57,902 nt of DNA from Eubacteriales bacterium (GTDB lineage Bacteria; Bacillota; Clostridia; Oscillospirales; CAG-272). Position 1 is the first letter of the stretch. Every line of letters starts with the position of its first letter. Location: the NCBI GenBank assembly GCA_045536775.1, contig JAZSOD010000010.1:1-57902 (forward strand). The letters are read 5' to 3'. The notes below the pieces were generated by a model. It worked only from the letters and a program-made list of their open reading frames with translations, was not told where the DNA came from and searched no databases. Shown one piece after another: positions 21,789 to 57,670 of the stretch. Position numbers and translations under genes: made by a program.

Positions 21789-22840
21789 CAAGCTTCAAGT
21801 ATTGCCTTTATAAGCTTTTTCGTGTATTTTTCCTTTGCGGCAAAGTCCATGGCAGACGCATATATTTTTTCTATCTCCGAGTGGATCCCGTATATAGCGC
21901 GCATAGTCTGTGCAGCCGATTCCACCATCTCAGACGCGCTTTTTCGCATAAAACGTATTTTTACCCTGTTTTCACGATACACGTCCTTGTCTATAAATCT
22001 GTCTGTGTTTATCACGGCGTTTCGCCCGGTGTCGCCGTATTCGGTGAACGAGATGCTTTTATCATTTACAAAGATCCCGTTAAGGCACCCCGTGTCAAGC
22101 GGAGAAAAAGACAGCTTTACCGAATGTCCGTACCCACAAAGTGCGCGCCTTAGCGCTGAGAACACGATAGGTGATATGTGTGCGGTATCATTTAGCACAA
22201 ACCTTGTTTTTGCGGTGCTGTAATAGATGCCCGTCTCGCTCTCTCCCATGTAGCTTATAGCCGAGGTAAGACGTACTTCCTCTCGCGGTGAAGAACCATC
22301 TCCTATTCTATGTACCGTGCGGCTTGCCCAAGCGTCAAGCTTCTCTCGCTTCACTGCCGGAAGAGTCAGAAGCGACGCCGCCTCGTTTGCTTCTCCAGCT
22401 GCGGATAAATACGAATACGCGTTTTTATAAAGCAGACTTTTCCTTTCGGCAAGCTCCGAGATGACAGCCGAGTTTTGTCTTAATATCCGAGAATTCCAGA
22501 ACTCTCCAAGATTTATTATCTCGTCTTTGCATCCCGGAAGCGACGGCTCCTCGCAGTGCGGCGGTGTTCCGTCTATTACGCCGATGCGCCTTGACTTCAG
22601 CATTATACCGTCGAGAGAGCGAGGGTCGGACGAGCAATAAAAGTATTCAACCGTCTCCCCAACGCTTTCTGCCGCCTCGGCGATCTCTCGCATAAGTCTG
22701 CTCTTTCCCGTGCCGCTTCCCCCCTTTATTATGTAAAGATAGTCAAGCTCTCCGTTTCTGAATATATCCTTAAAGAAAGAAACAAAGCCGCCCCTTGAAT
22801 TGGCGGCGGCAAAGTATCCGTTATTGTTTAATATCGTCAT
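21788..22840 (-). CDS. P-loop NTPase, PRK06851-like conserved Clostridia protein
   Basis: YFAAANSRGGF, IIKGGSGTGKS, CSSDPRSLDG, DGTPPH. Confidence 0.8.
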   Translation of the reverse strand: MTILNNNGYFAAANSRGGFVSFFKDIFRNGELDYLYIIKGGSGTGKSRLMREIAEAAESVGETVEYFYCSSDPRSLDGIMLKSRRIGVIDGTPPHCEEPSLPGCKDEIINLGEFWNSRILRQNSAVISELAERKSLLYKNAYSYLSAAGEANEAASLLTLPAVKREKLDAWASRTVHRIGDGSSPREEVRLTSAISYMGESETGIYYSTAKTRFVLNDTAHISPIVFSALRRALCGYGHSVKLSFSPLDTGCLNGIFVNDKSISFTEYGDTGRNAVINTDRFIDKDVYRENRVKIRFMRKSASEMVESAAQTMRAIYGIHSEIEKIYASAMDFAAKEKYTKKLIKAILEA

Positions 22841-31697: not shown

Positions 31698-32204
31698 TTA
31701 TCTTGTACATAATTGATCAAATTGCCATCGTAGCGGGTTTTCATAGATGTAATTTCGTATTTCACAATAATCGTCACGATTTCTCACAACATGATCATAA
31801 AAGGAACGTTGGAAAATCTTTTCTCCCGTGGTGCTACGTGACTTGTTTATATCTTTTGTTGCTTGATATTTAAGCCATCCAATCACCTCGTTCACCGTAG
31901 GGGAGGGGTCTCCCCTCCCGTCAGTTTTGATGAATGACAACAAAAGATGTATATGATTCGGCATAATCACATAACAATCGACAGATATTTCGGGGTATTT
32001 ATTTGGCAATTCTTGAATCCAAGAATCTACTACTTTTCCCTCTTGCGATAATTGCGGGAGGGGAGACCCCTCCCCTACAATCGTGGAAAGAATGTTTTTT
32101 CGATTTTCCGTACATATAGTTATGAAATATGCTCCGTTTGTAGCATAATCAAAATGCTTCAACCGAGTAGATTTTCTCTTTGGCAATTCTTTGCCTTGGT
32201 TCAT
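31698..32204 (-). mobile_element. REP-associated tyrosine transposase (RAYT, IS200-like Y1 HUH)
   Basis: RKSTRL..FDY..NGAYFITICT, YVIMPNHIH (HUH), FQRSFYDHVVR, YIYENP; associated with GTAG REPs. Confidence 0.9.
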
Positions 32205-32264
32205 TTTATCACCACTTTGATAACATTTCTTGTGCGGTAACGGGAGGGGAGACCCCTCCCCTAC
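31897..32264. repeat. three identical 23-bp REPs GTAGGGGAGGGGTCTCCCCTCCC
   Basis: 31897-31919 (+), 32056-32078 (-), 32242-32264 (-); first two lie inside the RAYT CDS. Confidence 0.9.
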
Positions 32265-32311
32265 AGCAAAAATCAAATATAACCACCGAATAATGTCTAC
32301 TGCCTTTTCAC

Positions 32312-35300
32312 TCAAAAGAAGCTTATCTGGTCGAATTCTTCCTCGGGCTTGGGCGCTTCAGCCTTTGCCTCTGCTTTCTTTTCTTCCTTCTTCTCCTTGG
32401 GTAGAGGTGCAAAGTCGAAAAGTGTCATCTGATTGGTTTCATTGAGCCCGTCAAGTGCGCCGTTCTTACGGAGAAGCTCAACGAGAGTCTTTGAGAGTGA
32501 GCAACGCGTGCTCATATCCTCAACAGACATAAACTCGCTTTCCTCTCTCGCCGCAACTATGTTCTGCGCCGCGGTATCGCCAAGACCGGGAAGTGACGAG
32601 AACGGCATTCTTATCTTACCGTCCTCGGGAAGAAACGCACTTGCCGCGCTCCTTCTGCAGTCTACGTTCAAGAACTTTATTCCTCTTGCCATACACTCGC
32701 AGACGAGCTGGAATATATCGTAGGTGTCCTTTTCCTTCTGCGACGCCTCCTTACCCTTCTTTTCTATCTCCTTCATATACGCCTTGACAGCACCTATTCC
32801 CTTGCCCACGATCTCGGCATCAAAGCCGCCCGGAGCAACAGACAAGAACGCCGCGTAGAATTCAAGCGGATAGTATATCTTATACCATCCGAGACGTATT
32901 GCCGAGATAACGTACGCCGCCGCGTGCGCCTTCGGGAACATATACTTGATCTTCAGACAGCTGTCAATATACCAATCGGGCACGTTGTGGTCCTTCATCA
33001 TCTGTATACGCTCGGGAGTGAAGGTCTTGGGCGCTTTACCCTTACGGGTGTCCTCCATTATCTGAAATGCGTCCTTCGGAGGCACGCCCTTATAGAGCAG
33101 ATAGGTCATAATACTGTCTCTTGTTCCGATAACGTTTGAAATAGTACAGGTTCCCGCGTCGATAAGGTCCTTGGCGTTACCCAGCCAAACGTCCGTACCG
33201 TGCGAGAGTCCCGATATCTGCAAGAGGTCGGAGAAGCCCTGAGGCTTTGTGTCAACAAGCATCTGACGCACGAATTTCGTTCCGAATTCGGGCAGACCGT
33301 AAGTTCCGACGGGGCTGCCTATGTCCTCCTCGGTTACTCCGAGAGGCTTGGTGGACAAAAACAGCTCGTAAACCTTTTTATCGTTCATAGGAACGTCTAG
33401 AACGCTGGTGTTGGTATACTTCTCAAGCCACTTATATTTGGTCGGCACATCGTGTCCGAGTATGTCGAGCTTGAGAATTGTATCGTGAAGAAATTTGTAA
33501 GTAAAGTGGGTGGTTATAGTACCTGCGCTTTCCTTTTCGGCAGGATACTGAACAGGTGTGAAATCGTAAACATCGTACTCTCTCGGCACGACTATGATTC
33601 CGCCCGGATGCTGACCCGTGGTCTTCTTTACGTCGGTACAGCCGTCTACAAGTCTTTGAACCTCTGCCTTGGGGAGAAGTATCTTTCGCTCCTCAAGGTA
33701 CTTCTTTACGTAACCGAACGCGGTCTTCGACGCGAGAGTACCTATAGTACCTGCGCGGAACACGTTTTCCTTGCCGAAGAGCACCTCGGTATATTTGTGC
33801 GCGTCTTCCTGCACGTCGCCCGAGAAATTAAGGTCTATATCGGGTGATTTATCGCCGTAGAATCCAAGGAAGGTCTCAAACGGGATATCGTGACCGTCGC
33901 GGTACATATCCTCTCCGCAATGAGGACAATTCTTCGGCGGCAGGTCAAAGCCCGAGCCGACAGAACCGTCTGTTATAAACTCGGAATAACGGCACTTCGG
34001 GCATCTGTAGTGCGGCTGAAGCGGGTTTACCTCTGTAATACCCGACATCGTCGCCGCAAAGGACGAGCCGACAGAGCCTCTCGAGCCTACGAGATAGCCC
34101 TTGCTTTCACTGTTCCACACAAGCTTCTGGGCTATCATATACATAATAGCAAAGCCGTTTCCGATTATGGATTTAAGCTCTCTGTCAAGTCTTTCGGACA
34201 CGATATCGGGAACCTTTCCCTCAAACTCGTACATCTCACGTGCCTTCTTGTGACACATTTCATCGAGCTCCTCGTTAACTCCGGGAAGGCTTGGCGGATA
34301 GTTGCCCTCAGGGATCGGGCGTATCTTCTCTATCATATCCGCAATGAGATTGGTGTTGGTTACTACCACCTCGTACGCTTCATCCTTGCCGAGATACTCA
34401 AATTCCGCGAGCATTTCCTCGGTCGTTCTGAGATAAAGTCCCGTTTCTCTGTCCGCATCCTTATATTTGTTTGAAACGAGTATCTGACGCTCTATCTCAT
34501 CCTCTTTGTTTAAGAAATGTGCATCACAGGTAGCACAGACAGGCTTTCCGAGCTTTTTACCAAGTCGGTAAATGCGACGGTTGATGTCACGTATCGCTTC
34601 CATATCGGGCAGGATGCCGTCGTCGACCATAAATGCGTTATTTGAAAGCGGCTGTATCTCAAGGTAATCGTAATAGCGTGCTATACGCTCGATCTCGCTT
34701 TCGGTGGCGTTATTGAGTATCGCCTGATAAAGCTCGCCTGCCTCGCAGGCAGAGCCGAGTATAAGTCCCTCACGGTGAGTATCTATCACCGATTTGGGGG
34801 TTCTCGGGTATCTCTTATAGTAGGTGAGGTAGCTCTGGGATACGATTTTATAAAGGTTCTTAAGTCCCGTCAGGTTCTTGACGAGAATTATCTGATGGTA
34901 GGGTCTTGCTTTAAGCGGGTCTGCGCTCTCGCTCATTTCGCGCAAAAGCTCCTCGAGGTTCCTCATTCCGTCCTTCGAGAGCGTATCGAACATACATTTT
35001 AAGATACGCGCAAGTATTTCGGCGTCATCGGACGCTCTGTGGTGGTTGAAATTGCCGAGCTCATAATATTCCGCGAGGGTATCGAGTTTGTGGTTCTTAA
35101 GTCCTTTATTAAGGAAACGCGAAAGTGCTACGGTATCAAGATATGAGTTCGGGAATGGGATCTTTGCGTTTTCCGCCGCACGCCTTATAAAGCTTGCGTC
35201 AAAATTCGCGTTGTGGGCAACGAGTATCCTGTCGCCCGCAAAGTCGAGAAACGCCTTGACCGCCTCGTCCTGCGAGGGTGCGCCTGCAACCATTTCGTCG

Positions 35301-36811
35301 GTAATTCCCGTAAGCTCGGTTATATTCTCGGGGATGTGACATTCGGGGTCGGCAAAGGTGTTGAAGGTTTCAAGAACCCCCCCGTTTTTCATTCTTACCG
35401 CGCCGATCTCAGTTATCTTGCAGTTCTGGACGGACAGTCCCGTGGTTTCTATGTCGAATACCACGTACTCGTCCTCGAACGTGTTTTTTAAGTCGGTTTC
35501 AAGGTTTTCTCCGAAAAGCACACGCGCCGTATCGTCAACGAAATAATTTTCTATTCCGTAAATGACCTTGAAGTCCTCAAGCTTCTCGGCTTCAAGCATT
35601 ATATTGGGATACGCCTGCACGTTTGCGTGGTCGGTCACGGCGATCGCCTTGTGTCCCCACTTGTACGCGGTTTTAATAAGAGTCTCGGGCGGAATGAGCG
35701 CATCAAGCGTCGACATTTTGGTATGCGCGTGAAGCTCTACTCTCTTATTATCACTTTTGTCCTTGCGCTCGACAAGCTTAATTTTCATAAGTGAGCGCGG
35801 GATAAATATTACCTCACCGTCAAAATTGTCAACCTTGGTATAGCCGTCAACGACCACAGCCGTACCTTTTTTTATGTCTGCGTATTCCATTGCCTCCTTT
35901 GCGGGAAGCGGAGTTTTTATAAATATGGAGGAGTCGCGGTCGGTAATACCCATAGTCACCACGACCTTTTCCTTGCCGCGCATCTCCTTTTCTTCGTAGT
36001 AAAAGACCTCTCCCACCACGTTAAGCTTGCTTTTTGCCTCAGTAAGCTCACGCATCGGAGTTATCTCTCCTATCTCAAAGGTCGGGCCGATAAGCTCGGC
36101 AGGCTCTGAAAAATCAAATACGGTCGCGCCAATCCTCACGCTTGCAGCACTCTGCTCAAAAACGAAGTCACCGTTTGCAAGATTCATTCTTCTCTCAAAG
36201 CCCGTATAGTCCTGTATCGGATTCGTGTTTTCGGGGAGCTTTGTTCTGAAGGCGGACGGGTCTATCTTATGCTTTGAAAGTATATCCTCCTCAAGCGCTC
36301 TCATATATTCGGTATCGTGCAGATACTTTTCGTGTTCGGTTTCAATACCGACTCTTATCTTTACTCCAAAGTTTTCAAGCGCAACCTTTTCCATAACGCG
36401 CGCCGTATTGGCAATATCGAGCAGGTCAATGCCACCGTCGCCAAAGCCTATCTTCAAGGACAGCGCCGAATTCTCATAGGTGAAGGCATAGTCGAAGAAA
36501 AAGCCGTGAGCAAGCGCGCCCTCCCTCTCGGAGAGCGTTATAAGCATATCTATGCTCTCCCGACTTCCGAACAGATCAGAGGGGAAATGCGGCTCAAAGC
36601 GCGCAGAGTTAAGCTCGTACGCAGCCTTTATTCCCTGCTCCGTAGTCTCAAGAGCCTCGGGTGAAAATACAGAATCCGTCCATATTTCCATAAGCAGAAG
36701 CTTTCGCTCCTTGTCGGTCTTGACAAGGTGCTTCTGCACCGAATCAAGCACCTTTTTCTGTGTTTCGTCGGGACTAAACCGAGATAATATTTCAGCAATC
36801 GTCTTTGCCAT
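32312..36811 (-). CDS. polC: DNA polymerase III PolC-type alpha subunit
   Basis: RVELHAHTKMS PHP, VFDIETTG exonuclease, GSRGSVGSS, PDIDLNF, YMFPKAHAAAY. Confidence 0.97.
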   Translation of the reverse strand: MAKTIAEILSRFSPDETQKKVLDSVQKHLVKTDKERKLLLMEIWTDSVFSPEALETTEQGIKAAYELNSARFEPHFPSDLFGSRESIDMLITLSEREGALAHGFFFDYAFTYENSALSLKIGFGDGGIDLLDIANTARVMEKVALENFGVKIRVGIETEHEKYLHDTEYMRALEEDILSKHKIDPSAFRTKLPENTNPIQDYTGFERRMNLANGDFVFEQSAASVRIGATVFDFSEPAELIGPTFEIGEITPMRELTEAKSKLNVVGEVFYYEEKEMRGKEKVVVTMGITDRDSSIFIKTPLPAKEAMEYADIKKGTAVVVDGYTKVDNFDGEVIFIPRSLMKIKLVERKDKSDNKRVELHAHTKMSTLDALIPPETLIKTAYKWGHKAIAVTDHANVQAYPNIMLEAEKLEDFKVIYGIENYFVDDTARVLFGENLETDLKNTFEDEYVVFDIETTGLSVQNCKITEIGAVRMKNGGVLETFNTFADPECHIPENITELTGITDEMVAGAPSQDEAVKAFLDFAGDRILVAHNANFDASFIRRAAENAKIPFPNSYLDTVALSRFLNKGLKNHKLDTLAEYYELGNFNHHRASDDAEILARILKCMFDTLSKDGMRNLEELLREMSESADPLKARPYHQIILVKNLTGLKNLYKIVSQSYLTYYKRYPRTPKSVIDTHREGLILGSACEAGELYQAILNNATESEIERIARYYDYLEIQPLSNNAFMVDDGILPDMEAIRDINRRIYRLGKKLGKPVCATCDAHFLNKEDEIERQILVSNKYKDADRETGLYLRTTEEMLAEFEYLGKDEAYEVVVTNTNLIADMIEKIRPIPEGNYPPSLPGVNEELDEMCHKKAREMYEFEGKVPDIVSERLDRELKSIIGNGFAIMYMIAQKLVWNSESKGYLVGSRGSVGSSFAATMSGITEVNPLQPHYRCPKCRYSEFITDGSVGSGFDLPPKNCPHCGEDMYRDGHDIPFETFLGFYGDKSPDIDLNFSGDVQEDAHKYTEVLFGKENVFRAGTIGTLASKTAFGYVKKYLEERKILLPKAEVQRLVDGCTDVKKTTGQHPGGIIVVPREYDVYDFTPVQYPAEKESAGTITTHFTYKFLHDTILKLDILGHDVPTKYKWLEKYTNTSVLDVPMNDKKVYELFLSTKPLGVTEEDIGSPVGTYGLPEFGTKFVRQMLVDTKPQGFSDLLQISGLSHGTDVWLGNAKDLIDAGTCTISNVIGTRDSIMTYLLYKGVPPKDAFQIMEDTRKGKAPKTFTPERIQMMKDHNVPDWYIDSCLKIKYMFPKAHAAAYVISAIRLGWYKIYYPLEFYAAFLSVAPGGFDAEIVGKGIGAVKAYMKEIEKKGKEASQKEKDTYDIFQLVCECMARGIKFLNVDCRRSAASAFLPEDGKIRMPFSSLPGLGDTAAQNIVAAREESEFMSVEDMSTRCSLSKTLVELLRKNGALDGLNETNQMTLFDFAPLPKEKKEEKKAEAKAEAPKPEEEFDQISFF

Positions 36812-37853: not shown

Positions 37854-39167
37854 ATGAAAAAATTTGCTTTTATCGGCGCGGGAAGCCTGCAGTTTACAAC
37901 AAGCTGCGTTCGCGATCTTCTTACCTTTGATGCCTTTAAGGACTGCGAAATTGCGCTTATGGACATCAATCCGTCAAATCTCGCAAACATCGAAAAAATA
38001 GTCAGAGATATCGTAGAAAAGATGAACTGTCCGAGGTGCAAGGTTGTTGCCACTCCCGACCGTGTTGAAGCCCTGAAGGGTGCTGACGGTGTTCTCTGCA
38101 CGGTTTTCAACGGCGACATCGACATCTGGCAATACGACATTATTATCCCGAAGAAATACGGTATTGATATCAACGTCGGTGACACGAGAAGCATATCGGG
38201 TATTTTCAGAGCGCTCAGAAACATTCCTCTTATGCTCGATATTTGCAAGGATATTGAAAAATACTGTCCGAACGCGGTCTTCTTGAACTACACAAATCCT
38301 ATGTCTATGCTCTGCGGCGCAATGCAGAGATATTCAAACGTTGAGGTGACGGGACTTTGCCACAGCGTTCAGAGTACGGCGCAAATGCTCGCCGAGTGGC
38401 TGGGTGTTCCGTTTGATGAGCTTACCTATAAGAGTATGGGTGTAAACCACCAGTCCTTCTACACGGTGCTTGAGCACAACGGAGAGGACCTTTACCCGAG
38501 ACTCAAGGAGCTTGTCAAGGACCCCGAGGTATATAACCGCGAGCAGGTTCGTAACGAAATGCTCTTAAAGCTCGGATACTACGTTACCGAGTCAAGCGGA
38601 CATAATTCCGAATACAATCAGTGGTTCAGAAAGAGACCCGACCTTATCGAAAAATACTGCACTCACGGAACGAACTGGAATCCCGGTGAGCACGCGTATT
38701 CGCTCAATCTTCGCAAAGACAGACGTGAGAATATACAGAAGCACTACGACCAATGGTACGAGAAGGAATTCGACCCCAAAAAGAGTCCCGAGTATGCGGC
38801 AGACATATTCAACGCGCGCCTCGGCGACGGCAAGCCGTTTATATTCAACGGAAACGTAATAAACAACGGTTCTATCCCAAATCTTCCCGCCAACGCTTGC
38901 GTTGAGGCACCCGTTGTTGCCGACAGAATGGGCTTCAAGACCACGATAGCAGGTCCTCTGCCCGAGCACATTGCGATACTCGTAAACACCACTGCGAGAA
39001 TGGAAACGCTCGTTGTTGAGGCGGCTATGAAAAAGAGCCGTGAGATGGTTTATCACGCGGTTTATATGGATCCCCTCTCATCCGCGGTATGCTCTATGGA
39101 TGAGATCAAGAATATGTGCGACGAGCTGTTCGAGATCAACAAGGATTTCCTTGGAGATTACAGATAA
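37854..39167 (+). CDS. melA: glycoside hydrolase family 4, alpha-galactosidase-like
   Basis: FIGAGS NAD motif, LNYTNP, GLCHSV, GVNH, TESSGHNSEY. Confidence 0.88.
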   Translation: MKKFAFIGAGSLQFTTSCVRDLLTFDAFKDCEIALMDINPSNLANIEKIVRDIVEKMNCPRCKVVATPDRVEALKGADGVLCTVFNGDIDIWQYDIIIPKKYGIDINVGDTRSISGIFRALRNIPLMLDICKDIEKYCPNAVFLNYTNPMSMLCGAMQRYSNVEVTGLCHSVQSTAQMLAEWLGVPFDELTYKSMGVNHQSFYTVLEHNGEDLYPRLKELVKDPEVYNREQVRNEMLLKLGYYVTESSGHNSEYNQWFRKRPDLIEKYCTHGTNWNPGEHAYSLNLRKDRRENIQKHYDQWYEKEFDPKKSPEYAADIFNARLGDGKPFIFNGNVINNGSIPNLPANACVEAPVVADRMGFKTTIAGPLPEHIAILVNTTARMETLVVEAAMKKSREMVYHAVYMDPLSSAVCSMDEIKNMCDELFEINKDFLGDYR

Positions 39168-39184
39168 GCGAAATTAAATAAATC

Positions 39185-39411
39185 AAAATCGGAATCAAAA
39201 AATACTCAGCTTCAGTTATTGTAGGATATACAAATAGCGGAGAAATGCTTTTGTATGATTTGATTGATATGGAGCCTGTTAACTTCGCAATAAAAAAGAA
39301 AGTGTCCCCAACCGGCCGTCGAATTCTGCGAAGAATTCAGCCGCCGACAGAGAGGAACCACTTTCTAACAACAGAATACCACAAAATCAGTCTGCTGTCA
39401 ATAGTAATAAT
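39185..39411 (+). pseudogene. truncated, frameshifted C-terminal remnant of a polyvalent-protein module
   Basis: KIGIKKYSASVIVGYTNSGEMLLYDLIDMEPVNFAIKK ends in the same GCAATAAAAA (AIK) end-of-module motif as two other modules; shifts frame near the A-run at ~39292 into the shared linker NRIPQN..VNSNNMQS. Confidence 0.55.
39289..39401 (-). ncRNA. putative antisense promoter plus hairpin sRNA unit 0
   Basis: TTGACA(39401-39396)-17 nt-TATTCT(39378-39373) with extended TG; terminal stem AGAAAGTG 39297-39304 / CACTTTCT 39359-39366; U-tract follows. Confidence 0.6.
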
Positions 39412-39496
39412 ATGCAATCTGAGCAAAGTTATTACGATAACGACGTTGCAGCTGAAGCTTCTGCAAGAGATGCGGCGTTTTTCATTGAGGATATTG
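39368..39496 (+). repeat. direct repeat B (129 bp), second copy 44871-44999
   Basis: Near-identical sequence encoding NRIPQN..VNSNNMQS..YYD.DVAAEASARDAAFFIEDI. Confidence 0.9.
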
Positions 39497-40130
39497 TCGA
39501 GGATGAGGACGGAAACATACACGAAAACACTCTTGTTGCACCTAAAAAGTCGGCTTCGCTTAAAAACAATTTATCTATGTCAGACGTAGACAATTTAAGG
39601 GAAATCTACAAAGAGAAAGGCGAAATATCTGTTAATGATTTCGCGTCGAAAGACATTAAAGCTTCGGAAAATTGGGCAAAAAATTTTTATTCCGAAATTG
39701 GGAATAAATCTCCGTTCTTTAGAGCTTGGTTTGGTGATTGGAGAGCTAACGAAAAAACAAAAGTTTCTATCGTCTTTGCTAACAAAAAAACAGGCAAAAA
39801 TCCAAGAGGCACTTTCATAAATAAAGATACTGGATGAAATATAAATTCATCAAGCGTTGGATACGATGAAACTGTTTCGCATAGTGGCAAGGACAAGCTT
39901 TCTCTTATTGCGATGAGAAGCATTGATGAAATTATTAAAAATTCTATTTTGTTTGATACAGAAGTTTCGTCGTGTGACAGAGGAAAAAAATCAATTTATA
40001 CTGCTTTCATGCATAAATTTTATTCTTGTGTTGCAATTGATGGCAAACATTACATTGCAAAAATGGCAGTAGACGAAAGTTATGCACCCGGGCAAAATGA
40101 TACGAATAAAAAGTTTTACCACGTAAGAGC

Positions 40131-40238
40131 AATAAAAATAGAACCCATATCGTCCGTGGGAATAGGTGTAAACCACATACCCATTATGGACGAAACAGGT
40201 TCTGTTATTATAGTATCAGATTTGTTCAATCTTGTCAA
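40131..40238 (-). ncRNA. putative antisense promoter plus hairpin sRNA unit 1
   Basis: TTGACA(40238-40233)-17 nt-TACTAT(40215-40210) with extended TG; stems AGAACC 40140-40145 / GGTTCT 40198-40203 and TCGTCC/GGACGA; U-tract follows. Confidence 0.6.
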
Positions 40239-40270
40239 GACTTACGACAAGGAATTTAATCCCAAGCCTG
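40219..40270 (+). repeat. direct repeat C (52 bp identical), second copy 42938-42989
   Basis: GATTTGTTCAATCTTGTCAAGACTTACGACAAGGAATTTAATCCCAAGCCTG in both. Confidence 0.92.
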
Positions 40271-40340
40271 TGTCTTCCGCCGCATTTTTGCTATTCTTCA
40301 ATAAAAACTTTTGACTTACTTCTAAATACCCCGTAAAATT

Positions 40341-41669
40341 TCATTCAAGAAAGCACTCAATAACATTGTCATCATACTGTGCAATGCGTTCCTGTAATTT
40401 CTTTAGCCTTTTTTTGGCTACATCAAAGCCTTTCTCTGCGGATTGTGTGTACCATTTAATAGCCTCATTATAATCTCTTTCAACTCCATTGCCATGTTCG
40501 TAGCAAAAGCCAAGATTATGCTGAGCATAAAAATTCCCCTTTTCAGCCGAAAGCCTGAAAAAACGTGCCGCCTCTGTATAATTCTTTTCTACTACCTCCC
40601 CGTCACAGTAACAACACCCCATAGCATTCAGACCTTGAGAGTCTCCCTGCGCCGCAGACAATTCATATAGACGAAATGCCTCGGCAACATTCTTTTCCAC
40701 TCCAAATCCGTTTTTGTAACAATACCCGAGGGAATGTTGCGCAAAGGCATCGCCCTGCTCTGCCGATAGCATATACCAACGTACTGCCTCTGTGTAATCT
40801 TTATCTACTCCTATGCCCGTTTCATAACAATGTCCTAAATTATACTGTGATCTGGAATTCCCTCGTTCCGCTGATAGTCTGTACCAGTATACTGCCTCTG
40901 TGTAGTTTTTTTCTACTCCCCGGCCATGCTCGTAACAAAGTCCCAAATTACACTGTGACTTAGTATTCCCTTGTTCTGCCGACAGTCTGTACCAATATAC
41001 TGCCTCTGTGTAGTTTTTTTCTACTCCATTTCCATATTCATAGCAAACTCCCAAGCTAAATTGCGAATTTGCGTTTCCTTGTTCTGCCGACAGTCTGTAC
41101 CAATATACTGCCCTTGTGTAATTCTGTTCCACACCCCTACCATGATAATAACATTCCGCAAGTCCATTCTGAGCAGCGTTGTTACCGCTTTCTACACCAC
41201 GCCTATATAGACGAAATGCCTCACTATAGTCCTTTGCAATCCCTAGTCCATAATAATAGGCTTTAGCAAGATTGTAAATTGCCCCACGATTTCCCTGCTC
41301 TGAAGACAGTTTAAACAACAGAACCGATTCTTCAAGATTCTTTTCAACAGCAAAACCTGTCTTATAACAAATCCCCAAATAATTCTGAGCCCGATGATCA
41401 CCAAGCTTGGATATTTTTTCCAATTTTGAAATATCAGCATCACCGCGCTTAAAAGCAATATACAAGCTCATATCATCTTCTTGCATCTGACCAAATCTTT
41501 TAAAGTAACCTTTTTCACCTGATAGTTTTATAGTAATCACTTTGTGGAATTTAGCCAGATAGTTCTCCGTGTCGTAATCCACATTCTTGGGATACGGCAC
41601 ATTTTGAAATGAACATTTAGGGCATCTCTTTAACGACGTTTCAAATCCGCAACACAAGCAAGCACCCAT
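40341..41669 (-). CDS. Sel1-like (TPR) repeat protein with N-terminal zinc ribbon
   Basis: ~9 36-aa repeats (AQxxLGxCYxxGxGVEKNYTEAVYWYRLSAEQG); CxxC..CxxC N-terminus; GAAGGAG RBS before ATG 41669; no signal peptide seen. Confidence 0.9.
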   Translation of the reverse strand: MGACLCCGFETSLKRCPKCSFQNVPYPKNVDYDTENYLAKFHKVITIKLSGEKGYFKRFGQMQEDDMSLYIAFKRGDADISKLEKISKLGDHRAQNYLGICYKTGFAVEKNLEESVLLFKLSSEQGNRGAIYNLAKAYYYGLGIAKDYSEAFRLYRRGVESGNNAAQNGLAECYYHGRGVEQNYTRAVYWYRLSAEQGNANSQFSLGVCYEYGNGVEKNYTEAVYWYRLSAEQGNTKSQCNLGLCYEHGRGVEKNYTEAVYWYRLSAERGNSRSQYNLGHCYETGIGVDKDYTEAVRWYMLSAEQGDAFAQHSLGYCYKNGFGVEKNVAEAFRLYELSAAQGDSQGLNAMGCCYCDGEVVEKNYTEAARFFRLSAEKGNFYAQHNLGFCYEHGNGVERDYNEAIKWYTQSAEKGFDVAKKRLKKLQERIAQYDDNVIECFLE

Positions 41670-41706
41670 AATTCTACAGTCTCCTTCACAGAGCATTAAA
41701 CTGGTA

Positions 41707-41802
41707 AAGACAGTCGACAACAGTAAAACGGAAGCCCATTCGTTTCACCAATATCTAAGACTGTCTTCATTCAATTATATGCTTTTTTTACGCTATTGTC
41801 AA
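41707..41802 (-). promoter_or_regulatory. perfect sigma-A promoter plus end-paired leader hairpin upstream of Sel1 gene
   Basis: TTGACA(41802-41797)-17 nt-TATAAT(41779-41774); AAGACAGTC 41707-41715 / GACTGTCTT 41759-41767. Confidence 0.8.
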
Positions 41803-41824
41803 CATTGAAAAGTTCTATGCGGAA

Positions 41825-44800
41825 ATGCCGAACGTTGCTCAGAGATTCCTCAATGCGATCAAGCGCTTTGTTGCAAGGATAAAGAGAGCTTTCGGCAAGT
41901 CTGATTCTGCAAGCGAGCTTGAGAGGGCGGCTGAGCTCTGGGAGGCTTCGCTTTACAGAATACGCAGAAACGTTGACAAGCAGCGCGCACGCGAAGAAAA
42001 GAAGGCGGCAAAGGCTGAGAAAAAGGCTGCCGAAGAGGACAACACCGTTATAGACGCCCGTATAAACAAAAATGCCGACCTTGATATCGGAGAAACCGAT
42101 ACAGAGGTCGACGCGCTTGGTATATATGATGAGGAATACGAGGGTGACGACGTTTCGTATGACGAAGATCCTGCGCAGGACTACTATGACGGTCCGGGCG
42201 TAGATGATGGCACCGGATTTGAGGACGTGTCTGAGGATGACGATGCCGGGGATGATGGCGACGGGGGCAGTGCGTACTTCATTGAGGATATTGACGATGA
42301 GGCTGTAAATACGCTTCGTTCAATCGGAGAGAAATCTGTCAACGAATTTGCGTCAGAGGAGTTAAAGAAAGCCGAGCCGTTTGCTCGAAAATTGTGGAAA
42401 GAGCTCGGAGTAAAATCACCTTTCTTCCGCGCGTGGTTTGGTGATTGGAGGGCGAACGATGCGAGCAAAGTTTCTATTACTGAAGTCGAAACCATAAATA
42501 TTGATGATGCGGTAATGGCAAACGGAGATTATAAAATCGAAGACACCGGATGGACTATTCACGCCGGGAAAACACTTCGCGAGGAAACAAAGCACTATGC
42601 TCGCGAAAAGAAGATATCCGTGAGAGCTTTGTCAACAATAGAACAAATTCTTAACAATTCTGTTCTTTTGGATACCGAAGTTTCAGTTCCTGATTCAAAA
42701 AATAAGTCGGACGGGACAGCTTTGATGCACAAACTGTATACTATCATACAGTATGATGGCAAATTATATATAGCTAAAACGACCGTAGAAGAATATTTGG
42801 ACACAAATTCCAAAACGATTAAACGCAAAGGTTATCATCTTCGCGCAATAAAAATAGAGACAGCCGGCGGACGCGCGACGGAAGAAACTTCCGCCTCCAC
42901 ATCAAGGCCTGACACTGTCTCTATAAACAGTATATCCGATTTGTTCAATCTTGTCAAGACTTACGACAAGGAATTTAATCCCAAGCCTGCGTCAAAGATC
43001 GTAAACGAAGACGGTACGCCTAAGGTAATGTATCACGGTAGTAATGCGAAATTTACTGTCTTTGACAAGAGAAAAGCAAAGTCGTCCGGATATTACGGCC
43101 GAGGATTCTATTTCTCAGACAGCAATAATCAAGCAGGCCTGTATGGAGAGCAGTACAGTGTATATCTTGACGTCAAAAATCCGTTAAAACCGGGAGGAAA
43201 CAAGATATCTGGCGCTCAATTACATAACTTTCTTAAGGCTGTCGCCGAAAACGAAGATTATTCTATCGAGAATTACGGCACGTATGATATCGCAAAAATC
43301 GCAAATAGCATAACAAGCACCGACACTTTTGCGGTAATAAGCGATATTAACGCTACCGCGATAGGCGATTTCGTCGAGGCCGTTAAGTTGTTCAACGAGG
43401 TAAATGGCACGAAATATGACGGAATAGTCGTCCCCACCGAAACCGTTGTATTCGAATCTACGCAAATAAAATCTGCCACTGATAATATCGGAACATTTAA
43501 CAAAAACGACCCCGATATTATGATGTTCATCGAGGACGTTGAGGACGTTGGTGCTTACGTAACCTCGTCAGAGCTTGAGGCGAATGCCAAGAAGCATATC
43601 AACGCGAGAGCTTCAAATGAGATCACCGATATGGGTATTCGTAAAATGGCGAGAGAAACAAAAATACCCGAGGCGGATCTTCAGAACCTGCGAAGAATAT
43701 ACAGAAGGTGCCGACTTAATAAGGGCGACTCCGAGGAGTTCAACAGGCTTATTTCTATTGCACGCGGTCTTGCTACTACTTCTCTTATGAGACATTCCGG
43801 AAGCGATAAAGTTTACTACAACGGGGTTTCCGAAAAAATCGTGGACACTGTTGCAAACGAGCTTATCAGGATGATAGCCGATGACACATATACTACTCCC
43901 GATGACGTCAAAGCCGAGCTCGAGAGGGCGGCTGAGCTCTGGGAGGCTTCGCTTTACAGAATACGCAGAAACGTTGACAAGCAGCGCGCTCATTCGGAAA
44001 AACAGGCGGCAAAGGCTGAGAAAAATGCTACCGAAGAAGACAACACCGTTATAGACGCCCGTATAAACAAAAATGCCGACCTTGATATCGGAGAAACCGA
44101 TACAGAGGTCGACGCGCTTGGTATATATGATGAGGAATACGAGGGTGATGACGTTTCGTATGACGAAGATCCTGCGGAGGATTACTATAACGGCCCGAAA
44201 AGTGAAGACGACGAGTTAGAGAATCTGTCCGGGAATAGTGATTCCGAGAATGATGGCGACGGGGATAATCCGAGTTTCATTGAGGATTTTGATGTGGATT
44301 CTCCTCAAATAATAACAAACTACAGTGACGCTATTGATAACATTTTGACGGTATCAGATGATGATGCAAAAAAATATGCAGAAAACAGAACGGTTGTGGA
44401 AGTCTGTGCTAATACTCCCTCTGTTATACTTGACAATGTAACAGAAGCTAAAAACTTAAAAATAATCATAAACTACACAAAGCTCTACCTTGCAGTAAGA
44501 AAAAGCGGCATTATAAAAGGAAATTATCATAATCTTGGAGCTGAAGTAGCAAAGAACTTGCACAAATATTTAGAAAATCCGGATGCAATTATCAGATTAG
44601 ACAACGGAAGACTAAATGTTTTATTCACCGTAAAAACCTCGAACGGAAATAACGGGCTAATTTCCGTTGAACTCAATAGCACAAAAGACGTTGGCGGAAA
44701 AAACGAGAAATATAATGTAATCGTTACCGTTATGAGTTCAAATAACAATTACATTAAAAATCTTACCTCTCGTCCCGGAGTCTCGGTCAAATACAAAAGA

Positions 44801-45193
44801 GAGGACCTATCGCAAGTGAATCCCCAACTGTATAAATGGTTGGCAACTATTAACGATAGGACCTCTCCTGACAATAGGATACCACAAAACAATCCTACTG
44901 TCAATAGTAATAATATGCAATCTTCGCAAAATTATTACGATGACGATGTTGCAGCTGAAGCTTCTGCGAGAGATGCGGCGTTTTTCATTGAGGACATTGA
45001 AGGCGACGAGGGATACGTTACCTCGGCTGAGCTTGAGGCGAACGCCAAGAAGCATATCAATGCGAGATCTTCAAACGAGATCACCGATATGGGTATTCGT
45101 AAAATGGCGAGAGAAGCAAAAATACGGCGGATTTTCCGCCGTATTTTTGCTTGTTTAATTTATTCATCAATGGGGTCAAAAACTCTTACGTAG
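41825..45193 (+). CDS. mosaic fragment of a phage-type large polyvalent protein (LPD3-like, ART-PolyVal-like and MuF-C-like modules)
   Basis: LPD3-like ~42290-42860; ART-like VNEDGTPKVMYHGS..GFYFS..VYL..TQIKSATDNIGTF ~43000-43500; MuF-C-like NTPSVIL..YHNLG..LENPDAII ~44290-44800; acidic linkers; weak RBS, both ends look truncated. Confidence 0.7.
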   Translation: MPNVAQRFLNAIKRFVARIKRAFGKSDSASELERAAELWEASLYRIRRNVDKQRAREEKKAAKAEKKAAEEDNTVIDARINKNADLDIGETDTEVDALGIYDEEYEGDDVSYDEDPAQDYYDGPGVDDGTGFEDVSEDDDAGDDGDGGSAYFIEDIDDEAVNTLRSIGEKSVNEFASEELKKAEPFARKLWKELGVKSPFFRAWFGDWRANDASKVSITEVETINIDDAVMANGDYKIEDTGWTIHAGKTLREETKHYAREKKISVRALSTIEQILNNSVLLDTEVSVPDSKNKSDGTALMHKLYTIIQYDGKLYIAKTTVEEYLDTNSKTIKRKGYHLRAIKIETAGGRATEETSASTSRPDTVSINSISDLFNLVKTYDKEFNPKPASKIVNEDGTPKVMYHGSNAKFTVFDKRKAKSSGYYGRGFYFSDSNNQAGLYGEQYSVYLDVKNPLKPGGNKISGAQLHNFLKAVAENEDYSIENYGTYDIAKIANSITSTDTFAVISDINATAIGDFVEAVKLFNEVNGTKYDGIVVPTETVVFESTQIKSATDNIGTFNKNDPDIMMFIEDVEDVGAYVTSSELEANAKKHINARASNEITDMGIRKMARETKIPEADLQNLRRIYRRCRLNKGDSEEFNRLISIARGLATTSLMRHSGSDKVYYNGVSEKIVDTVANELIRMIADDTYTTPDDVKAELERAAELWEASLYRIRRNVDKQRAHSEKQAAKAEKNATEEDNTVIDARINKNADLDIGETDTEVDALGIYDEEYEGDDVSYDEDPAEDYYNGPKSEDDELENLSGNSDSENDGDGDNPSFIEDFDVDSPQIITNYSDAIDNILTVSDDDAKKYAENRTVVEVCANTPSVILDNVTEAKNLKIIINYTKLYLAVRKSGIIKGNYHNLGAEVAKNLHKYLENPDAIIRLDNGRLNVLFTVKTSNGNNGLISVELNSTKDVGGKNEKYNVIVTVMSSNNNYIKNLTSRPGVSVKYKREDLSQVNPQLYKWLATINDRTSPDNRIPQNNPTVNSNNMQSSQNYYDDDVAAEASARDAAFFIEDIEGDEGYVTSAELEANAKKHINARSSNEITDMGIRKMAREAKIRRIFRRIFACLIYSSMGSKTLT
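41914..42192 (+). repeat. direct repeat A (~280 bp), second copy 43915-44193
   Basis: ELERAAELWEASLYRIRRNVDKQR...EDNTVIDARINKNADLDIGETDTEVDALGIYDEEYEGDDVSYDEDPA near-identical at DNA level, offset 2001 bp. Confidence 0.93.
42847..42957 (-). ncRNA. putative antisense promoter plus hairpin sRNA unit 2
   Basis: TTGACA(42957-42952)-17 nt-TATACT(42934-42929); perfect 10-bp IR ATAGAGACAG 42854-42863 / CTGTCTCTAT 42915-42924; U-tract follows. Confidence 0.62.
43556..43667 (+). repeat. direct repeat E (112 bp), second copy 45014-45125
   Basis: Encodes YVTS.ELEANAKKHINAR.SNEITDMGIRKMARE.KI in both. Confidence 0.9.
44789..44904 (-). ncRNA. putative antisense promoter plus hairpin sRNA unit 3
   Basis: TTGACA(44904-44899)-17 nt-TATCCT(44881-44876) with extended TG; 13/14 IR GAGAGGACCTATCG 44799-44812 / CGATAGGACCTCTC 44854-44867; U-rich tail. 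Confidence 0.6.
45114..45152. terminator. perfect 18-bp hairpin, bidirectional terminator at right edge of polyvalent patch
   Basis: AAGCAAAAATACGGCGGA-TTT-TCCGCCGTATTTTTGCTT. Confidence 0.85.
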
Positions 45194-45995
45194 TCGACTA
45201 TGAACTCGTCGGGCATTGCAGATTTAAGAAGCTCGTTCGGCTGGTCGCTGTAGCGGTATCCGTCACACTCGGTCGTAATGAGGATAAACTGCTCGGTATG
45301 CGAAACGGGTCCGTCATGGTGTCCGTCAAACACGCCGTCGATATAGAAGTCATAGCCGTTCGGTGTCCAGTTTACCGCGAAGGTATGGAACTGTTCGTGG
45401 TTCGGGATAGAAAATCTGTCGGGCGCGAATTCTGTCTCGTGCTCGGTTACAAATTTTTCCTTATGCTCTGCTCCGTATCCGCCCCAATGCAAGAAATGGG
45501 GAATCATTCTGCCAGGCTCAAAGCTTTCCATTATATCAACATCAACGCCTGCCTTACCGGGATCTGTACAGCATCCGATTATCGGACTCTGAAGCCAGAA
45601 CGCGCTCCACCAACCGCCTTTCTGCTGTGTTCGGCAACGGCACTCGTAGTAACCGTATTTATGTAAAAACTTCTGCTCTTCATGCTTGGCGATAGGCCAC
45701 ACGAACTTTCCGTAGCCGTTTTCCTCGGGGGGATTATCCATAAAGTTGCTTCCTGTCTGGAGCTGGGCGCTGTAGTAGTGTCCGTCCTTTTCAACAAGCT
45801 TTATATGCACGCAGCCGTCCTTGACCTCGACACCCTCGTCGGTATAGGTCTTATGCCAGTTATGCATAATTCCGCGTCTGAAGCCCCACTTGGTTGTATC
45901 GAGCGTGTCTCCGTCAAACTCATCGCTCCACACAAGCTTCCATTTGCCGTCGGGAAGTAAGCTTGACTCGTGTCCTTCAACCTCGTATTTTGCAT
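45160..45995 (-). pseudogene. glycoside hydrolase family 16, frameshifted just after its start codon
   Basis: WKLVWSDEFDG, KYGYYECR, WSAFWLQS, FHTFAVNW, FIVDYVRVF; RBS plus ATG at 45995 is 1 nt out of frame; GTG 45933 is the first in-frame start. Confidence 0.7.
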
Positions 45996-46087
45996 ATCTT
46001 TCACCTTCCTCGGTTTTATCTTTGACTCAATATTATCAAAGCGGGCAGCAAAATTATATAAGGATATTACTGTCCGATATCAAAACA

Positions 46088-47158
46088 TTACTTTATTCCG
46101 AACATTTTTTGAATTTCGGAAACAAGAGTTTCGATAATCAAATCTTCTGGTATTTTTCTTACTATCTCGCCTTTCTTAAACAGTATCGCCTCGCCGTTGC
46201 CTCCGGCAACTCCGATATCGGCTTCTCTCGCCTCTCCCGGTCCGTTGACAACGCATCCCATCATAGCGACGGTTATGGGTCTGTCCACGCGAAGCTGGGT
46301 GTCAGCTATTTCTTCAAATCTGTGAACAAGCTCGATAAGGTTTATCTTTGTTCTTCCGCAAGTGGGACAGGACACAACGTTTATGGTATTTGCGCCCGAA
46401 CGTCCTATTGCTTTAAGGAGCGCCTTTGCGCTTCTGACCTCGTCAGTGGGGTCCGCCGTGAGCGAAATGCGGATGGTATCTCCGATGTCATCACAAAGTA
46501 AGCTTCCGATACCTGCAGACGACTTTATAAGTCCCTGCTTTTCGGTGCCTGCCTCGGTAACTCCGAGGTGGAGAGGATAGTTAACTCTCTCGCTCAGATA
46601 GCGGTTTGCGTCTATCATAGTCTTGACGTTTGAGCTTTTCACGGACAAAACTATGTTATCAAAATCGAATTTTTCAAGAAGCGACGCGTGATAGAGCGCG
46701 CTTTCAGCGAGAGCCTCTGCCGTTGGTGAGCCATATCTCTCAAGTATGCTTTTTTCAAGCGAGCCTGAGTTCACGCCTATTCTTATGGGAATGTTTTTCG
46801 AGGCACATATATTCGCTACCGCGCGAACCTTTTCATTATCACCGATGTTTCCCGGGTTTATTCTTATCTTATCAACCCCCACGTTTGCACACTCTATTGC
46901 TATTCTGTAGTCAAAGTGAATGTCTGCAACGAGTGGCACACGCACGTCGGCATTTTTGAGTCTTTCTATGGTCGAGACCGCCTTTACGTCGGGGATCGCA
47001 AGACGTACTACGTCGCAACCCTCGGCTTCAAGCGCTCTGACCTGTCTCAAACACGCCTCAAAATCGTGTGTATCGGTATTGGTCATAGACTGAACGGCTA
47101 TTCTCTCTCCACCGCCTATCACAAGACCGCCTATTTTTACTTTTCTCGTTTTACTCAT
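46088..47158 (-). CDS. ispG: (E)-4-hydroxy-3-methylbut-2-enyl-diphosphate synthase
   Basis: VQSMTNT, PLVADIHF, RINPGN, SCPTCGR, MGCVVNGPGEA. Confidence 0.97.
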   Translation of the reverse strand: MSKTRKVKIGGLVIGGGERIAVQSMTNTDTHDFEACLRQVRALEAEGCDVVRLAIPDVKAVSTIERLKNADVRVPLVADIHFDYRIAIECANVGVDKIRINPGNIGDNEKVRAVANICASKNIPIRIGVNSGSLEKSILERYGSPTAEALAESALYHASLLEKFDFDNIVLSVKSSNVKTMIDANRYLSERVNYPLHLGVTEAGTEKQGLIKSSAGIGSLLCDDIGDTIRISLTADPTDEVRSAKALLKAIGRSGANTINVVSCPTCGRTKINLIELVHRFEEIADTQLRVDRPITVAMMGCVVNGPGEAREADIGVAGGNGEAILFKKGEIVRKIPEDLIIETLVSEIQKMFGIK

Positions 47159-57029: not shown

Positions 57030-57106
57030 TGGGGTGTAGCCAAGCGGTTAAGGCACCAGACTTTGACTCTGGCATTTCGTTGGTTCAAATCCAACCACTC
57101 CAGCCA
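57030..57106 (+). tRNA. tRNA-Gln(TTG)
   Basis: Acceptor TGGGGTG/CACTCCA, D-loop AGCCAAGCGGTTAAGGC, anticodon arm CCAGA-CTTTGAC-TCTGG, GTTCAAATCC, CCA end. Confidence 0.97.
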
Positions 57107-57231
57107 AAAATCTCCTCGGACGAAGTACGGGGAGATTTTTACTTTTTCACTTTTCACTCTTCACTTTTCACTAAATCCGTCCGAGGAGATTTTTGGCAAA
57201 GTAATAAGTAATAGTGAATAGTGAAAAAGTG
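57103..57231. repeat. interleaved inverted repeat plus heptamer arrays
   Basis: 20-bp perfect IR 57103-57122 / 57178-57197; (T/C)TTCACT x4 at 57145-57172; complementary AGT(G/A)A(A/T)-type array 57200-57231. Confidence 0.85.
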
Positions 57232-57266
57232 TGGTTGAATTTGCTGCGCAAAATCTTCACTTTAAG

Positions 57267-57295
57267 TTGAAAAGTAATAGGTTTTGTGGTATAAT
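57267..57295 (+). promoter_or_regulatory. sigma-A promoter of four-helix-bundle gene
   Basis: TTGAAA-17 nt-TATAAT with extended TG; AAGGAGG RBS downstream. Confidence 0.7.
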
Positions 57296-57325
57296 GGAGA
57301 AAAGTAAAGCAAGGAGGTAGGCAAT

Positions 57326-57670
57326 ATGTCCGAAAGTCCTTTGATGATAAAGTCGAAAGCGTTTGCTTTGGAAGTTATTCGCGCTTGTAAGGCGTTGAGA
57401 GAAGCGAGGTGCGAAAGTGCGTTGATCAATCAGTTTTTGCGTTCGGGAACGAGCATTGGCGCGAATATTCGTGAGGCTTTCTATGCTCAAGGCAAGGCGG
57501 ATTTTGTGGCAAAATTACATATTGCCCTCAAGGAATGCTCCGAAACGGAATATTGGCTTGAGCTTTTGATTGAGAGTGGATATTATTACGATAAAACGAT
57601 TTTGGATAGATGTGTTGAGGTAAAACGAATTTTGATTGCCTCGATCAACACGGCGAAGGAGAATAAATGA
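57326..57670 (+). CDS. four helix bundle protein (23S-IVP/TIGR02436-like)
   Basis: KSKAFALEVI, QFLRSGTSIGANIREA..AQGKADF..KL.IALKEC.ETEYWLELL. Confidence 0.9.
   Translation: MSESPLMIKSKAFALEVIRACKALREARCESALINQFLRSGTSIGANIREAFYAQGKADFVAKLHIALKECSETEYWLELLIESGYYYDKTILDRCVEVKRILIASINTAKENK

Follow-up and report, generated by a model that had tools for sequence, protein, structure and literature searches.

Why does a chromosome of otherwise housekeeping character carry a row of phage-type effector domains joined by long direct repeats? The array in question lies in contig JAZSOD010000010.1 (assembly GCA_045536775.1, an Eubacteriales bacterium of the CAG-272 lineage), of which we analysed positions 1 to 57,902 of the forward strand, here called the window. 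The source is a metagenome-assembled genome (MAG) with a total length of 1.61 Mb over 96 contigs, a completeness of 83.8% and a contamination of 3.3%. The original prediction, made from the letters alone, had left two answers: a chromosomal store of interchangeable effector cassettes that could recombine into a full-length gene elsewhere, or the debris of such recombination. The second fits best. With slightly better than even confidence, we read the locus as debris of phage-chromosome recombination, in which fragments of a polyvalent-protein gene and a Sel1 cassette were left in the chromosome.

The array is foreign DNA at a site that is empty in other sequences. About 5.95 kb (39168-45113) separates a GH4 glycoside hydrolase gene (37854-39167, plus strand; Pfam Glyco_hydro_4 and Glyco_hydro_4C), whose stop codon forms the left border of the inserted DNA, from a chromosomal bidirectional terminator hairpin (45114-45152, found as a self reverse match). 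The hairpin belongs to the convergent pair of this gene and a GH16 gene (45160-45933, minus strand; Pfam Glyco_hydro_16). In G003, a genome of the same genus with flanks 87–88% identical to the window at the nucleotide level, the site consists of the GH4 stop codon, 17 nt, a hairpin equivalent to 45114-45152, and the GH16 3′ end. We also aligned to positions 38800-45500 the contigs of four gut or faecal metagenome runs, X1, X2 and X3 among them, and compared them by coordinates and 30-letter ends. Each run held at most 12% of the sampled words, and uncovered parts of the stretch were given no meaning. The empty-site joint, from 39167 directly to 45134, was seen in contigs of X2 and X3. The G + C content was 0.38–0.45 within the array and 0.46–0.50 in the flanks. 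On these comparisons, the array is a polymorphic insertion in the intergenic region that carries the terminator.

Breakpoints lie at 39167/39168 on the left, at 40274/40275 (the end of the first copy of repeat C), at 41804/41805, and, on the right, within the second copy of repeat E. The left junction is bridged by a contig of X3 (39087-39542). At the right junction, repeat E (…CAAAAATACCCGAGGCGGAT…) and the terminator arm (…CAAAAATACGGCGGAT…) overlap in sequence, with CAAAAATAC(+GGCGGAT) as the common stretch, suggesting a microhomology-mediated join. The same junction was found in a separate assembly: P0123, a relative of 452 aa encoded on a 7377-nt contig, ends with repeat E and the same hairpin read-through (RRIFRRIFACLIYS), and its last residues, YSPI-stop, match a flank of the G003 type. 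A 9–10-nt word, CAAAAA(A)TAC, at 39197-39206 was considered as a target-site duplicate of the right junction and rejected, because it lies inside a coding remnant and the empty-site joint sets the left edge at 39167/39168. No att-like repeats, inverted repeats, tRNA target, integrase or other phage genes were found in the insertion or its flanks. Integrase, capsid and conjugation genes were likewise missing among the 39 larger open reading frames (ORFs) of the window, as the original prediction had said, though an ORF for an IS200-like Y1 transposase is present (31698-32315, minus strand; Pfam Y1_Tnp, E 4e-6), the sole mobility-type match.

The insertion holds two pieces of a polyvalent-protein gene with an unrelated gene in between. 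Piece 2 (41805-45113, plus strand) is truncated at its 5′ and 3′ ends. An open frame (41825-45193), whose 1122-aa product we call P0001, runs through repeat A copy 1, a helical and acidic linker (41914-42196); LPD3-type domain copy 2 (42302-42932; Pfam residues 232-326, E 2.5e-9); repeat C copy 2, the LPD3-to-ART junction (42933-42993); an ART-PolyVal ADP-ribosyltransferase domain (42998-43519; Pfam residues 394-558, E 1e-22); repeat E copy 1, starting with FIEDV (43526-43667); a helical spacer (43668-43914); repeat A copy 2 (43915-44197); a MuF_C-like (PBECR-type) domain (44297-44854; Pfam MuF_C residues 898-982, E 2.5e-7); repeat B copy 2 (44868-45011); and repeat E copy 2, cut short at the terminator arm (44984-45125). 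LPD3, ART-PolyVal and MuF_C all scored above the Pfam cut-offs in this one frame, which is the multi-domain feature of polyvalent proteins. Together with the second LPD3 domain and the Sel1 gene described below, these matches confirmed the module order of the original prediction. The spacer was all-helical in a low-confidence model, and variant genes diverge after 43893. AlphaFold, given the single sequence from repeat E through the helical spacer and repeat A to the acidic stretch, returned a mean pLDDT of 59 and a pTM of 0.32, helical to residue 183 and unstructured from there on.

Homology of piece 2 to P0122, a relative of 709 aa on a 3547-nt contig, begins at 41807, and the ATG at 41825 aligns with a Thr of P0122. 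At the other end, the C-terminal 20-odd residues of P0001 are translated hairpin and antisense GH16. Both the start and the end of the frame are thus accidental. We found no Shine-Dalgarno-like sequence at this ATG, and no promoter-like site upstream of piece 2 on the plus strand. Upstream of 41805, contigs of X2 and X3 continue unlike the window (for ~7.1 kb in X2). The locus has neither a complete polyvalent-protein gene with its own start and end nor neighbouring genes for virion, packaging or transfer functions. Piece 2 is an open but headless and tailless segment, and the locus as such is most probably inert.

Piece 1 (39182-40274, plus strand) is damaged. It begins with the C-terminal end of a domain (39182-39292) without a start codon, which gave no Pfam match and no match to P0001, P0122 or P0123. 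An A-run at 39286-39291 is one nucleotide shorter than in contigs of X1 and X3, which have an extra A after 39291. By frame arithmetic, one added base at 39291 unites the frames beginning at 39182 and 39283; the frameshift splits the remnant from repeat B copy 1 (39365-39508), which ends in a FIEDI motif and is 86% identical to copy 2. What follows the shifted frame is a single frame (39283-40314) broken by one TGA (39835-39837) inside LPD3-type domain copy 1 (39601-40213; Pfam LPD3 E 1.4e-9, in frame 39838-40311), where LPD3 copy 2 has TGG (Trp). The two LPD3 copies share 45% amino acid identity. Recoding of TGA was considered and rejected, because under translation table 11 the window's housekeeping genes read normally. 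Repeat C copy 1 (40214-40274) closes the piece, and homology to the polyvalent gene ends at 40274. Instead of these lesions, the contigs of X1 and X3 lack one nucleotide at 39784, within a stretch that aligns gap-free to P0068 (81% over 204 aa), indicating that the lesions are lineage-specific. Despite them, LPD3 copy 1 retains 26 of 26 strongly conserved columns. With no start, a 1-nt deletion and a TGG-to-TGA change, piece 1 is by these marks a pseudogene.

Between the two pieces, bounded by two breakpoints, lies the Sel1 cassette (40275-41804, minus strand). Its gene (40341-41720, minus strand) encodes nine Sel1 repeats (Pfam), the likely start being the ATG that gives MGACLCCG. A sigma-70-type promoter, TTGACA-17-TATAAT, matching the consensus at 12 of 12 positions, occupies 41802-41774 on the minus strand and adjoins breakpoint 41804/41805. 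This opposite-strand gene is the sole extra one; no ORF lies between the modules, and a cognate immunity gene for each cassette is lacking. Relatives of the cassette were found neither in 40 relatives (DNA search), nor in eight same-genus genomes (protein search), nor in viral contigs. When the complete insert was searched by blastn in phage and plasmid records, nothing relevant came up, only a Sel1/TPR stretch in two Bartonella plasmids. The N-terminus of the Sel1 protein is Cys-rich and zinc-ribbon-like (CLCCG…CPKC), and a signal peptide was not apparent by eye.

The site is occupied in more than one way. In contigs of X1 and X3, a short form runs from 39184 to 40274, continues with 14 other letters, and resumes at 45104. 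The 14 letters encode S-K-I-V-N, as at the start of the ART domain after repeat C copy 2, with 11 of 14 bases identical. From this match, the short form is a plain deletion product: piece 1 formerly continued into an ART domain, and the sequence as far as the tail of repeat E was lost later. P0123 represents another form; upstream of its repeat E it has an LPD3 domain, the linker FIEDV-VEDEDGNIHEN, which also occurs in piece 1, and one further domain without a family match. The GH4/GH16 site thus exists in no fewer than three filled forms, which have the right junction in common, and in the empty form.

What are the repeats? A repeat search of positions 38000-46500 reproduced repeats A, B, C and E where the original prediction had placed them, at 86–97% nucleotide identity. 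Repeat A (41914-42196 and 43915-44197) is 283 nt long with 94% identity, B (39365-39508 and 44868-45011) 144 nt with 86%, C (40214-40274 and 42933-42993) 61 nt with 97%, and E (43526-43667 and 44984-45125) 142 nt with 87%; the inner 52 nt of C (40219-40270) are identical, as had been predicted. Weaker pairs were 42205-42294 with 44203-44292 (70%) and 39706-39770 with 42413-42477 (78%). A 52-nt identity, and repeats of 140–280 nt at 86–94%, within 6 kb are far beyond chance. By codon, about half of the differences between repeat copies are synonymous (A 7:7, E 6:8, B 7:9), suggesting that the repeats reflect recent common descent and not strong protein constraint. Across the LPD3 domains the nucleotide identity of the two copies is 35–73%, and it jumps to 93% in C.

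Repeat C has a different standing from the others. Searching the modules by BLAST against 120 full-length proteins, we found LPD3 in 119, ART in 118, C in 72, MuF_C in 9 (at 56–69% identity) and B, weakly, in 4; A, E, the helical region, both acidic stretches and the N-terminus matched none of the 120. C had been taken for an interchangeable linker; this part of the original prediction did not hold, as C is evidently the conserved LPD3-to-ART junction at the end of that block and no free linker. In a windowed search, internal repeats of at least 70% identity over at least 30 aa occurred in 6 of the 120 full-length homologs, making the tandem slots of the window unusual. In one homolog, P0035, residues 139-531 and 517-909 are a recent tandem duplication of ~390 aa including the LPD3 region, at 85–100% identity; it is the sole one of the 120 with a repeat comparable to those of the window.

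Close relatives of the linkers were few. An exhaustive phmmer search with the stretch from E through the helical region and A to the acidic linker, against 1.84 billion representatives, returned only P0001, P0122, P0123 and P0124 (E 2.2e-4), an LRR-rich protein that we set aside as a chance or low-complexity match. By word search, only P0001 and P0122 came up, and with repeat B and its upstream linker only P0001. No relatives of E-helical-A were confirmed in viral, genome or metagenome contigs. An exact 28-nt word of E had no match in metagenome, genome or viral contigs, and an exact 32-nt word of A none in viral contigs; a protein atlas search gave no usable match.

In these few relatives, the linkers stand beside different domains. 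P0122 has a window-like N-terminus and repeat A (88–95%, with A at residues 16-144), followed by a pair of unrelated LPD3-like domains and, after these, by E and the helical region (88–92%); its match runs to residue 678 and breaks off where the contigs of X2 and X3 diverge (43893). In a contig of X3, A and E-helical are separated, in this order, by 741 other letters. Contigs of X2 have A, MuF_C, B, E, 65 letters and the helical region, with ~7 kb more upstream. Repeat A on the 5′ side and E-helical on the 3′ side therefore flank a slot, in which these alignments show at least four different cargos. The direct repeats are, as far as such comparison goes, the inter-domain linkers of the donor gene lineage itself. 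The claim that the same linkers lead to different domains thus holds within the locus, in P0122 and in the X2 and X3 contigs; other loci do share the linkers with alternative domains, the point at which the original prediction was open to refutation. Junction sequences common to longer genes with other cargo (P0122, P0123, X2, X3) came from other samples only. For the lineage of the phage gene, these independent sequences support the idea that cassettes are exchanged via the linkers.

The linkers also share a motif. P0001 has four occurrences of F-[IVL]-E-D-[IVFL], P0122 three, P0123 two and piece 1 one, each at a domain boundary with acidic residues after it. In the 120 generic homologs the motif was counted 9 times in total (2.4 expected from shuffles), at most once per protein and in unrelated contexts. 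Polyvalent proteins have been proposed to be cut into units by embedded metallopeptidases (Iyer et al., PMC5512222), and the prohead proteases of T4, phiKZ and SPN3US cleave after Glu (PMC5694885). By analogy with these prohead proteases, the FIED motif may be a processing site that frees individual effectors.

Where do complete genes of this kind reside? Matches to P0001 were found in 739 proteins of 1965–5000 aa, the best 120 of which have the LPD3-C-ART block, ~37% of the query. The LPD3-ART block was present in 26 IMG/VR loci, and in 24 of the 26 an open frame of at least 1900 aa spans the match. Among the flanking ORFs scanned (22 of 54, from three IMG/VR loci), we recognised an internal virion protein (phrog_511, twice), a large terminase, lysin-like proteins, RusA and an integrase (twice); at one locus, L029, the polyvalent gene is immediately followed by the integrase gene. 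Eight full-length proteins additionally carry PBECR5, extra MuF_C copies, LPD38 or a Strawberry-notch-type helicase (Pfam). Judged by these neighbours, the full-length LPD3-ART relatives (2000–4800 aa) reside in temperate-phage contigs. A tblastn search of P0001 against phage records gave only ART-domain matches, at ~30% identity in six records, and its best match in the phage database was annotated as a mosaic protein of the jhp1044/HP1116 kind and covers the ART region only (32.5% identity). Any match to P0001 was found in 5 of 41 related genomes (G000 included).

We propose the following course of events. Foreign DNA came to lie between the GH4 stop codon and the GH4/GH16 terminator hairpin of an otherwise housekeeping chromosome, and would consist of two truncated pieces of a temperate-phage polyvalent-protein gene with the unrelated Sel1 gene in between. 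The donor product would have been a giant virion-packaged protein that brings several anti-host effector domains into the cell. Arrival and remodelling would have taken place by illegitimate (microhomology) recombination and by linker-guided homologous recombination with infecting or lysogenic phages. The locus would then be a by-product and no host-run system, and the remnant may still serve phages passively as a recombination substrate.

Several observations weigh against debris of this kind. In the short-form contigs of X1 and X3, piece 1 is ~98.4% identical to the window and the flank on the same contigs (45104-45500) 92–95%, with the change at the junctions; the difference in divergence between insert and flanks gave Fisher p values of 0.002, 0.005 and 0.03. 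Plain old debris would not give an insert less diverged than its flanks: the insert is either younger than the split of the host lineages or being homogenised. Identical junctions in lineages with flanks differing by 6–10% are odd for a random illegitimate event. Piece 2 has kept 25 of 25 conserved columns in ART, 27 of 27 in LPD3 and 56 of 60 in MuF_C, and its 1122-codon frame is still open; intact columns fit a very recent arrival, but selection or repeated renewal would account for them too. In the four runs, no independent contig bridged the inner junctions (40274/40275 and 41804/41805). Finally, with the MAG at 83.8% completeness, a full-length gene or a prophage may have stayed unassembled.

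Some of these points would be met if the locus were an evolutionary effector store, kept fresh by traffic, from which phages or a full-length gene swap cargo through A, B and E-helical. The same linkers with different cargo in the window, P0122, P0123 and the X2 and X3 contigs agree with this, as do the at least three filled forms with one right junction, the intact conserved residues and the rarity of high-identity internal repeats in the family (6 of 120). The insert is 4–5 times less diverged than flanks on the same contigs, with a step at the junctions, as conversion from a shared phage pool would give, and a cassette idea was raised by Iyer et al. (2017; PMC5512222) for small ORFs of Verrucomicrobium spinosum that neighbour a polyvalent gene. 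However, DNA and protein searches found no second copy of any module and no full-length gene elsewhere in the 83.8%-complete MAG, the pieces are truncated, and piece 1 carries a frameshift and a nonsense lesion, so that a store feeding a full-length gene is not supported for this genome. The store is weakened further by the lack of recombinase, invertase or immunity-type genes in the locus, by the insertion polymorphism and by the temperate-phage setting of the full-length relatives. The short form is a plain deletion product, and no direct instance of exchange was seen. We therefore regard a reservoir as doubtful. Equally tentative is a wider picture, in which the polyvalent gene is built like beads on a string, linker slots swap cassettes, the remnant is converted by phages of several hosts or donates to them, and FIED marks a site for a phage protease cutting after Glu; repeated conversion by phages would explain the low divergence of the insert.

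A decayed prophage is quite unlikely. It overlaps with recombination debris and differs only in the arrival route of the DNA: site-specific integration in the GH4/GH16 spacer, followed by deletions that spared parts of the polyvalent gene and a Sel1 moron. The temperate-phage contigs of the full-length relatives, with the integrase adjoining the gene in L029, would suit it, as would identical junctions in lineages with diverged flanks and a Sel1 gene with its own strong promoter, like those of phage morons. Yet at the site itself the window lacks an integrase, att-like repeats, a tRNA target and any further phage gene. On the left, the insertion directly adjoins the GH4 stop, and the 17–19-nt spacer of the empty site is not recognisable; on the right, the junction falls within coding sequence of E and shows microhomology to the terminator arm. 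Moreover, the LPD3 domains of the two pieces are only 45% identical, and Sel1 relatives were not found in viral contigs. We consider it very improbable that the host expresses the 1122-aa LPD3-ART-PBECR protein as a domesticated gene, for instance to divert or attack related phages or competitors as a decoy or a weapon. The long open frame and the conserved columns would fit, and transcription from GH4 could enter the insertion, the terminator now being downstream, but the start is a chance Met in a truncated linker without a Shine-Dalgarno-like sequence, no promoter-like site precedes it on the plus strand, the divergent, perfect promoter serves Sel1, and the C-terminus is translated terminator. 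Piece 2 is also absent from the short and empty forms, and no RNA run contains the stretch. Least credible is an assembly chimera, phage reads having been joined to a chromosomal contig via shared repeats. A MAG of 96 contigs with 3.3% contamination, unbridged inner junctions, and related longer genes in the same kind of samples leave room for one. Against this, a contig of X3 spans the left junction, P0123 reproduces the E/hairpin junction in another assembly, and the X1 and X3 contigs join the hairpin flank to piece 1; the inner junctions connect unlike sequences without repeats, which a path through a repeat in the assembly graph cannot explain.

Polyvalent proteins, their mosaicism and the cassette analogy were already described by Iyer, Burroughs, Anand, de Souza and Aravind in 2017 (PMC5512222). 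The locus shares with these phage-type proteins the LPD3, ART and MuF-C/PBECR vocabulary, full-length relatives of 2000–4800 aa encoded beside virion genes, and the predicted delivery of several effectors with the DNA (PMC5512222). It differs in having only truncated chromosomal pieces, without a virion or packaging gene, and in the long near-identical nucleotide linkers and the FIED boundary motif of its lineage. In the main text of PMC5512222 the word 'linker' does not occur (supplements were not covered, and no wider literature search was made on this point), and we did not find there a linker-bracketed slot, a FIED boundary motif or a multi-allelic chromosomal remnant. Helicobacter prophage proteins of the jhp1044/HP1116 type, as described in that article (PMC5512222), likewise have domains duplicated and rearranged into many combinations; they are products of intact proteobacterial prophage genes, unlike the Clostridia-type chromosomal remnant studied here, in which exchange points can be assigned to specific conserved linkers. 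The orphan C-terminal cassettes of polymorphic toxins, and the small ORFs of V. spinosum that Iyer et al. likened to them (PMC5512222), resemble the locus in that truncated fragments with alternative cargo have short conserved sequences in common with longer genes. In our case, by contrast, the searched genome yielded no main gene, and no immunity genes are paired with the fragments, which lie in an insertion polymorphism, and the longer genes appear to be phage-borne.

Temperate phages are reported to acquire DNA of defective prophages by relaxed homologous recombination (PMC3945230), and a dead remnant could feed phage mosaicism in a similar way; here, however, the remnant is a piece of a single gene and no defective prophage, the locus has no recombinase, and the recombination is a proposed one. 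The MuF polymorphic toxins of temperate phages (PMC5576092) are also phage-borne multi-domain proteins with variable effector ends. Unlike them, the pieces in the window lack the MuF N-terminal domain and have only MuF-C (PBECR-like), embedded between linkers. Polyvalent proteins are thought to be an injected multi-tool with which phages and plasmids disarm host defences, and the reshuffling of their domains has so far been known only from comparing architectures; the locus and its metagenomic variants tie it to specific linkers. They also show that a single chromosomal site can retain pieces of such a gene across several host lineages, the pieces varying and yet remaining unusually fresh. Should the exchange be real, chromosomal remnants would join the gene pool from which gut phages draw new counter-defence combinations.

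Debris of the same gene lineage lies at a second chromosomal site. Contig C79 of G003 has at ~9970-10150 (minus strand), in an intergenic position after the threonyl-tRNA synthetase gene, a dead remnant of ~170–200 nt that consists of a domain end and the start of repeat B (…NNGIPQNRSAVNSNNMQS). It carries a frameshift, and 55 nt of it are 96% identical to window positions 39365-39419. On another contig of G003 (C54, 9949-9989), a non-coding-looking 42-nt match (86%) to the end of the MuF_C-like domain (44813-44854) is a tiny remnant or chance. A 2566-aa open frame on contig C66 of G003 was considered as a close relative and rejected, as it matches E over a single stretch of 32 aa and lacks the FIED motif. 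In a genome of another genus (G010, contig C5, 8893-9711, minus strand), a 272-aa ORF is a truncated fragment with the LPD3 end, C and the ART start (ART-PolyVal profile positions 2-66 of 140). The fragment adjoins a BspA-type LRR_5 gene and a D5-type primase gene, ~1.4 kb from rpsB, and resembles the window in that a repeat-protein gene adjoins a polyvalent fragment.

Outside the insertion, the 39 larger ORFs of the window were housekeeping genes of a Clostridia-type chromosome (Pfam scan, table 11), such as Tex, RelA/SpoT, RecJ, CdaA, PolC, IspG, RseP, Dxr, CdsA, UppS, Frr, PyrH, RpsB and Tsf. A 350-aa ORF (21788-22840, minus strand), with the CdaA/YbbR operon on one side and a D-Ala-D-Ala carboxypeptidase gene on the other, had no Pfam match at E 1e-5. 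The end of the Y1 transposase ORF and the start of the PolC gene (32312-36811) share 4 nt. The stretch 57030-57670 contains a tRNA-Gln gene and, after it, an ORF for a member of the 23S rRNA intervening-sequence protein family (Pfam E 1.4e-22).

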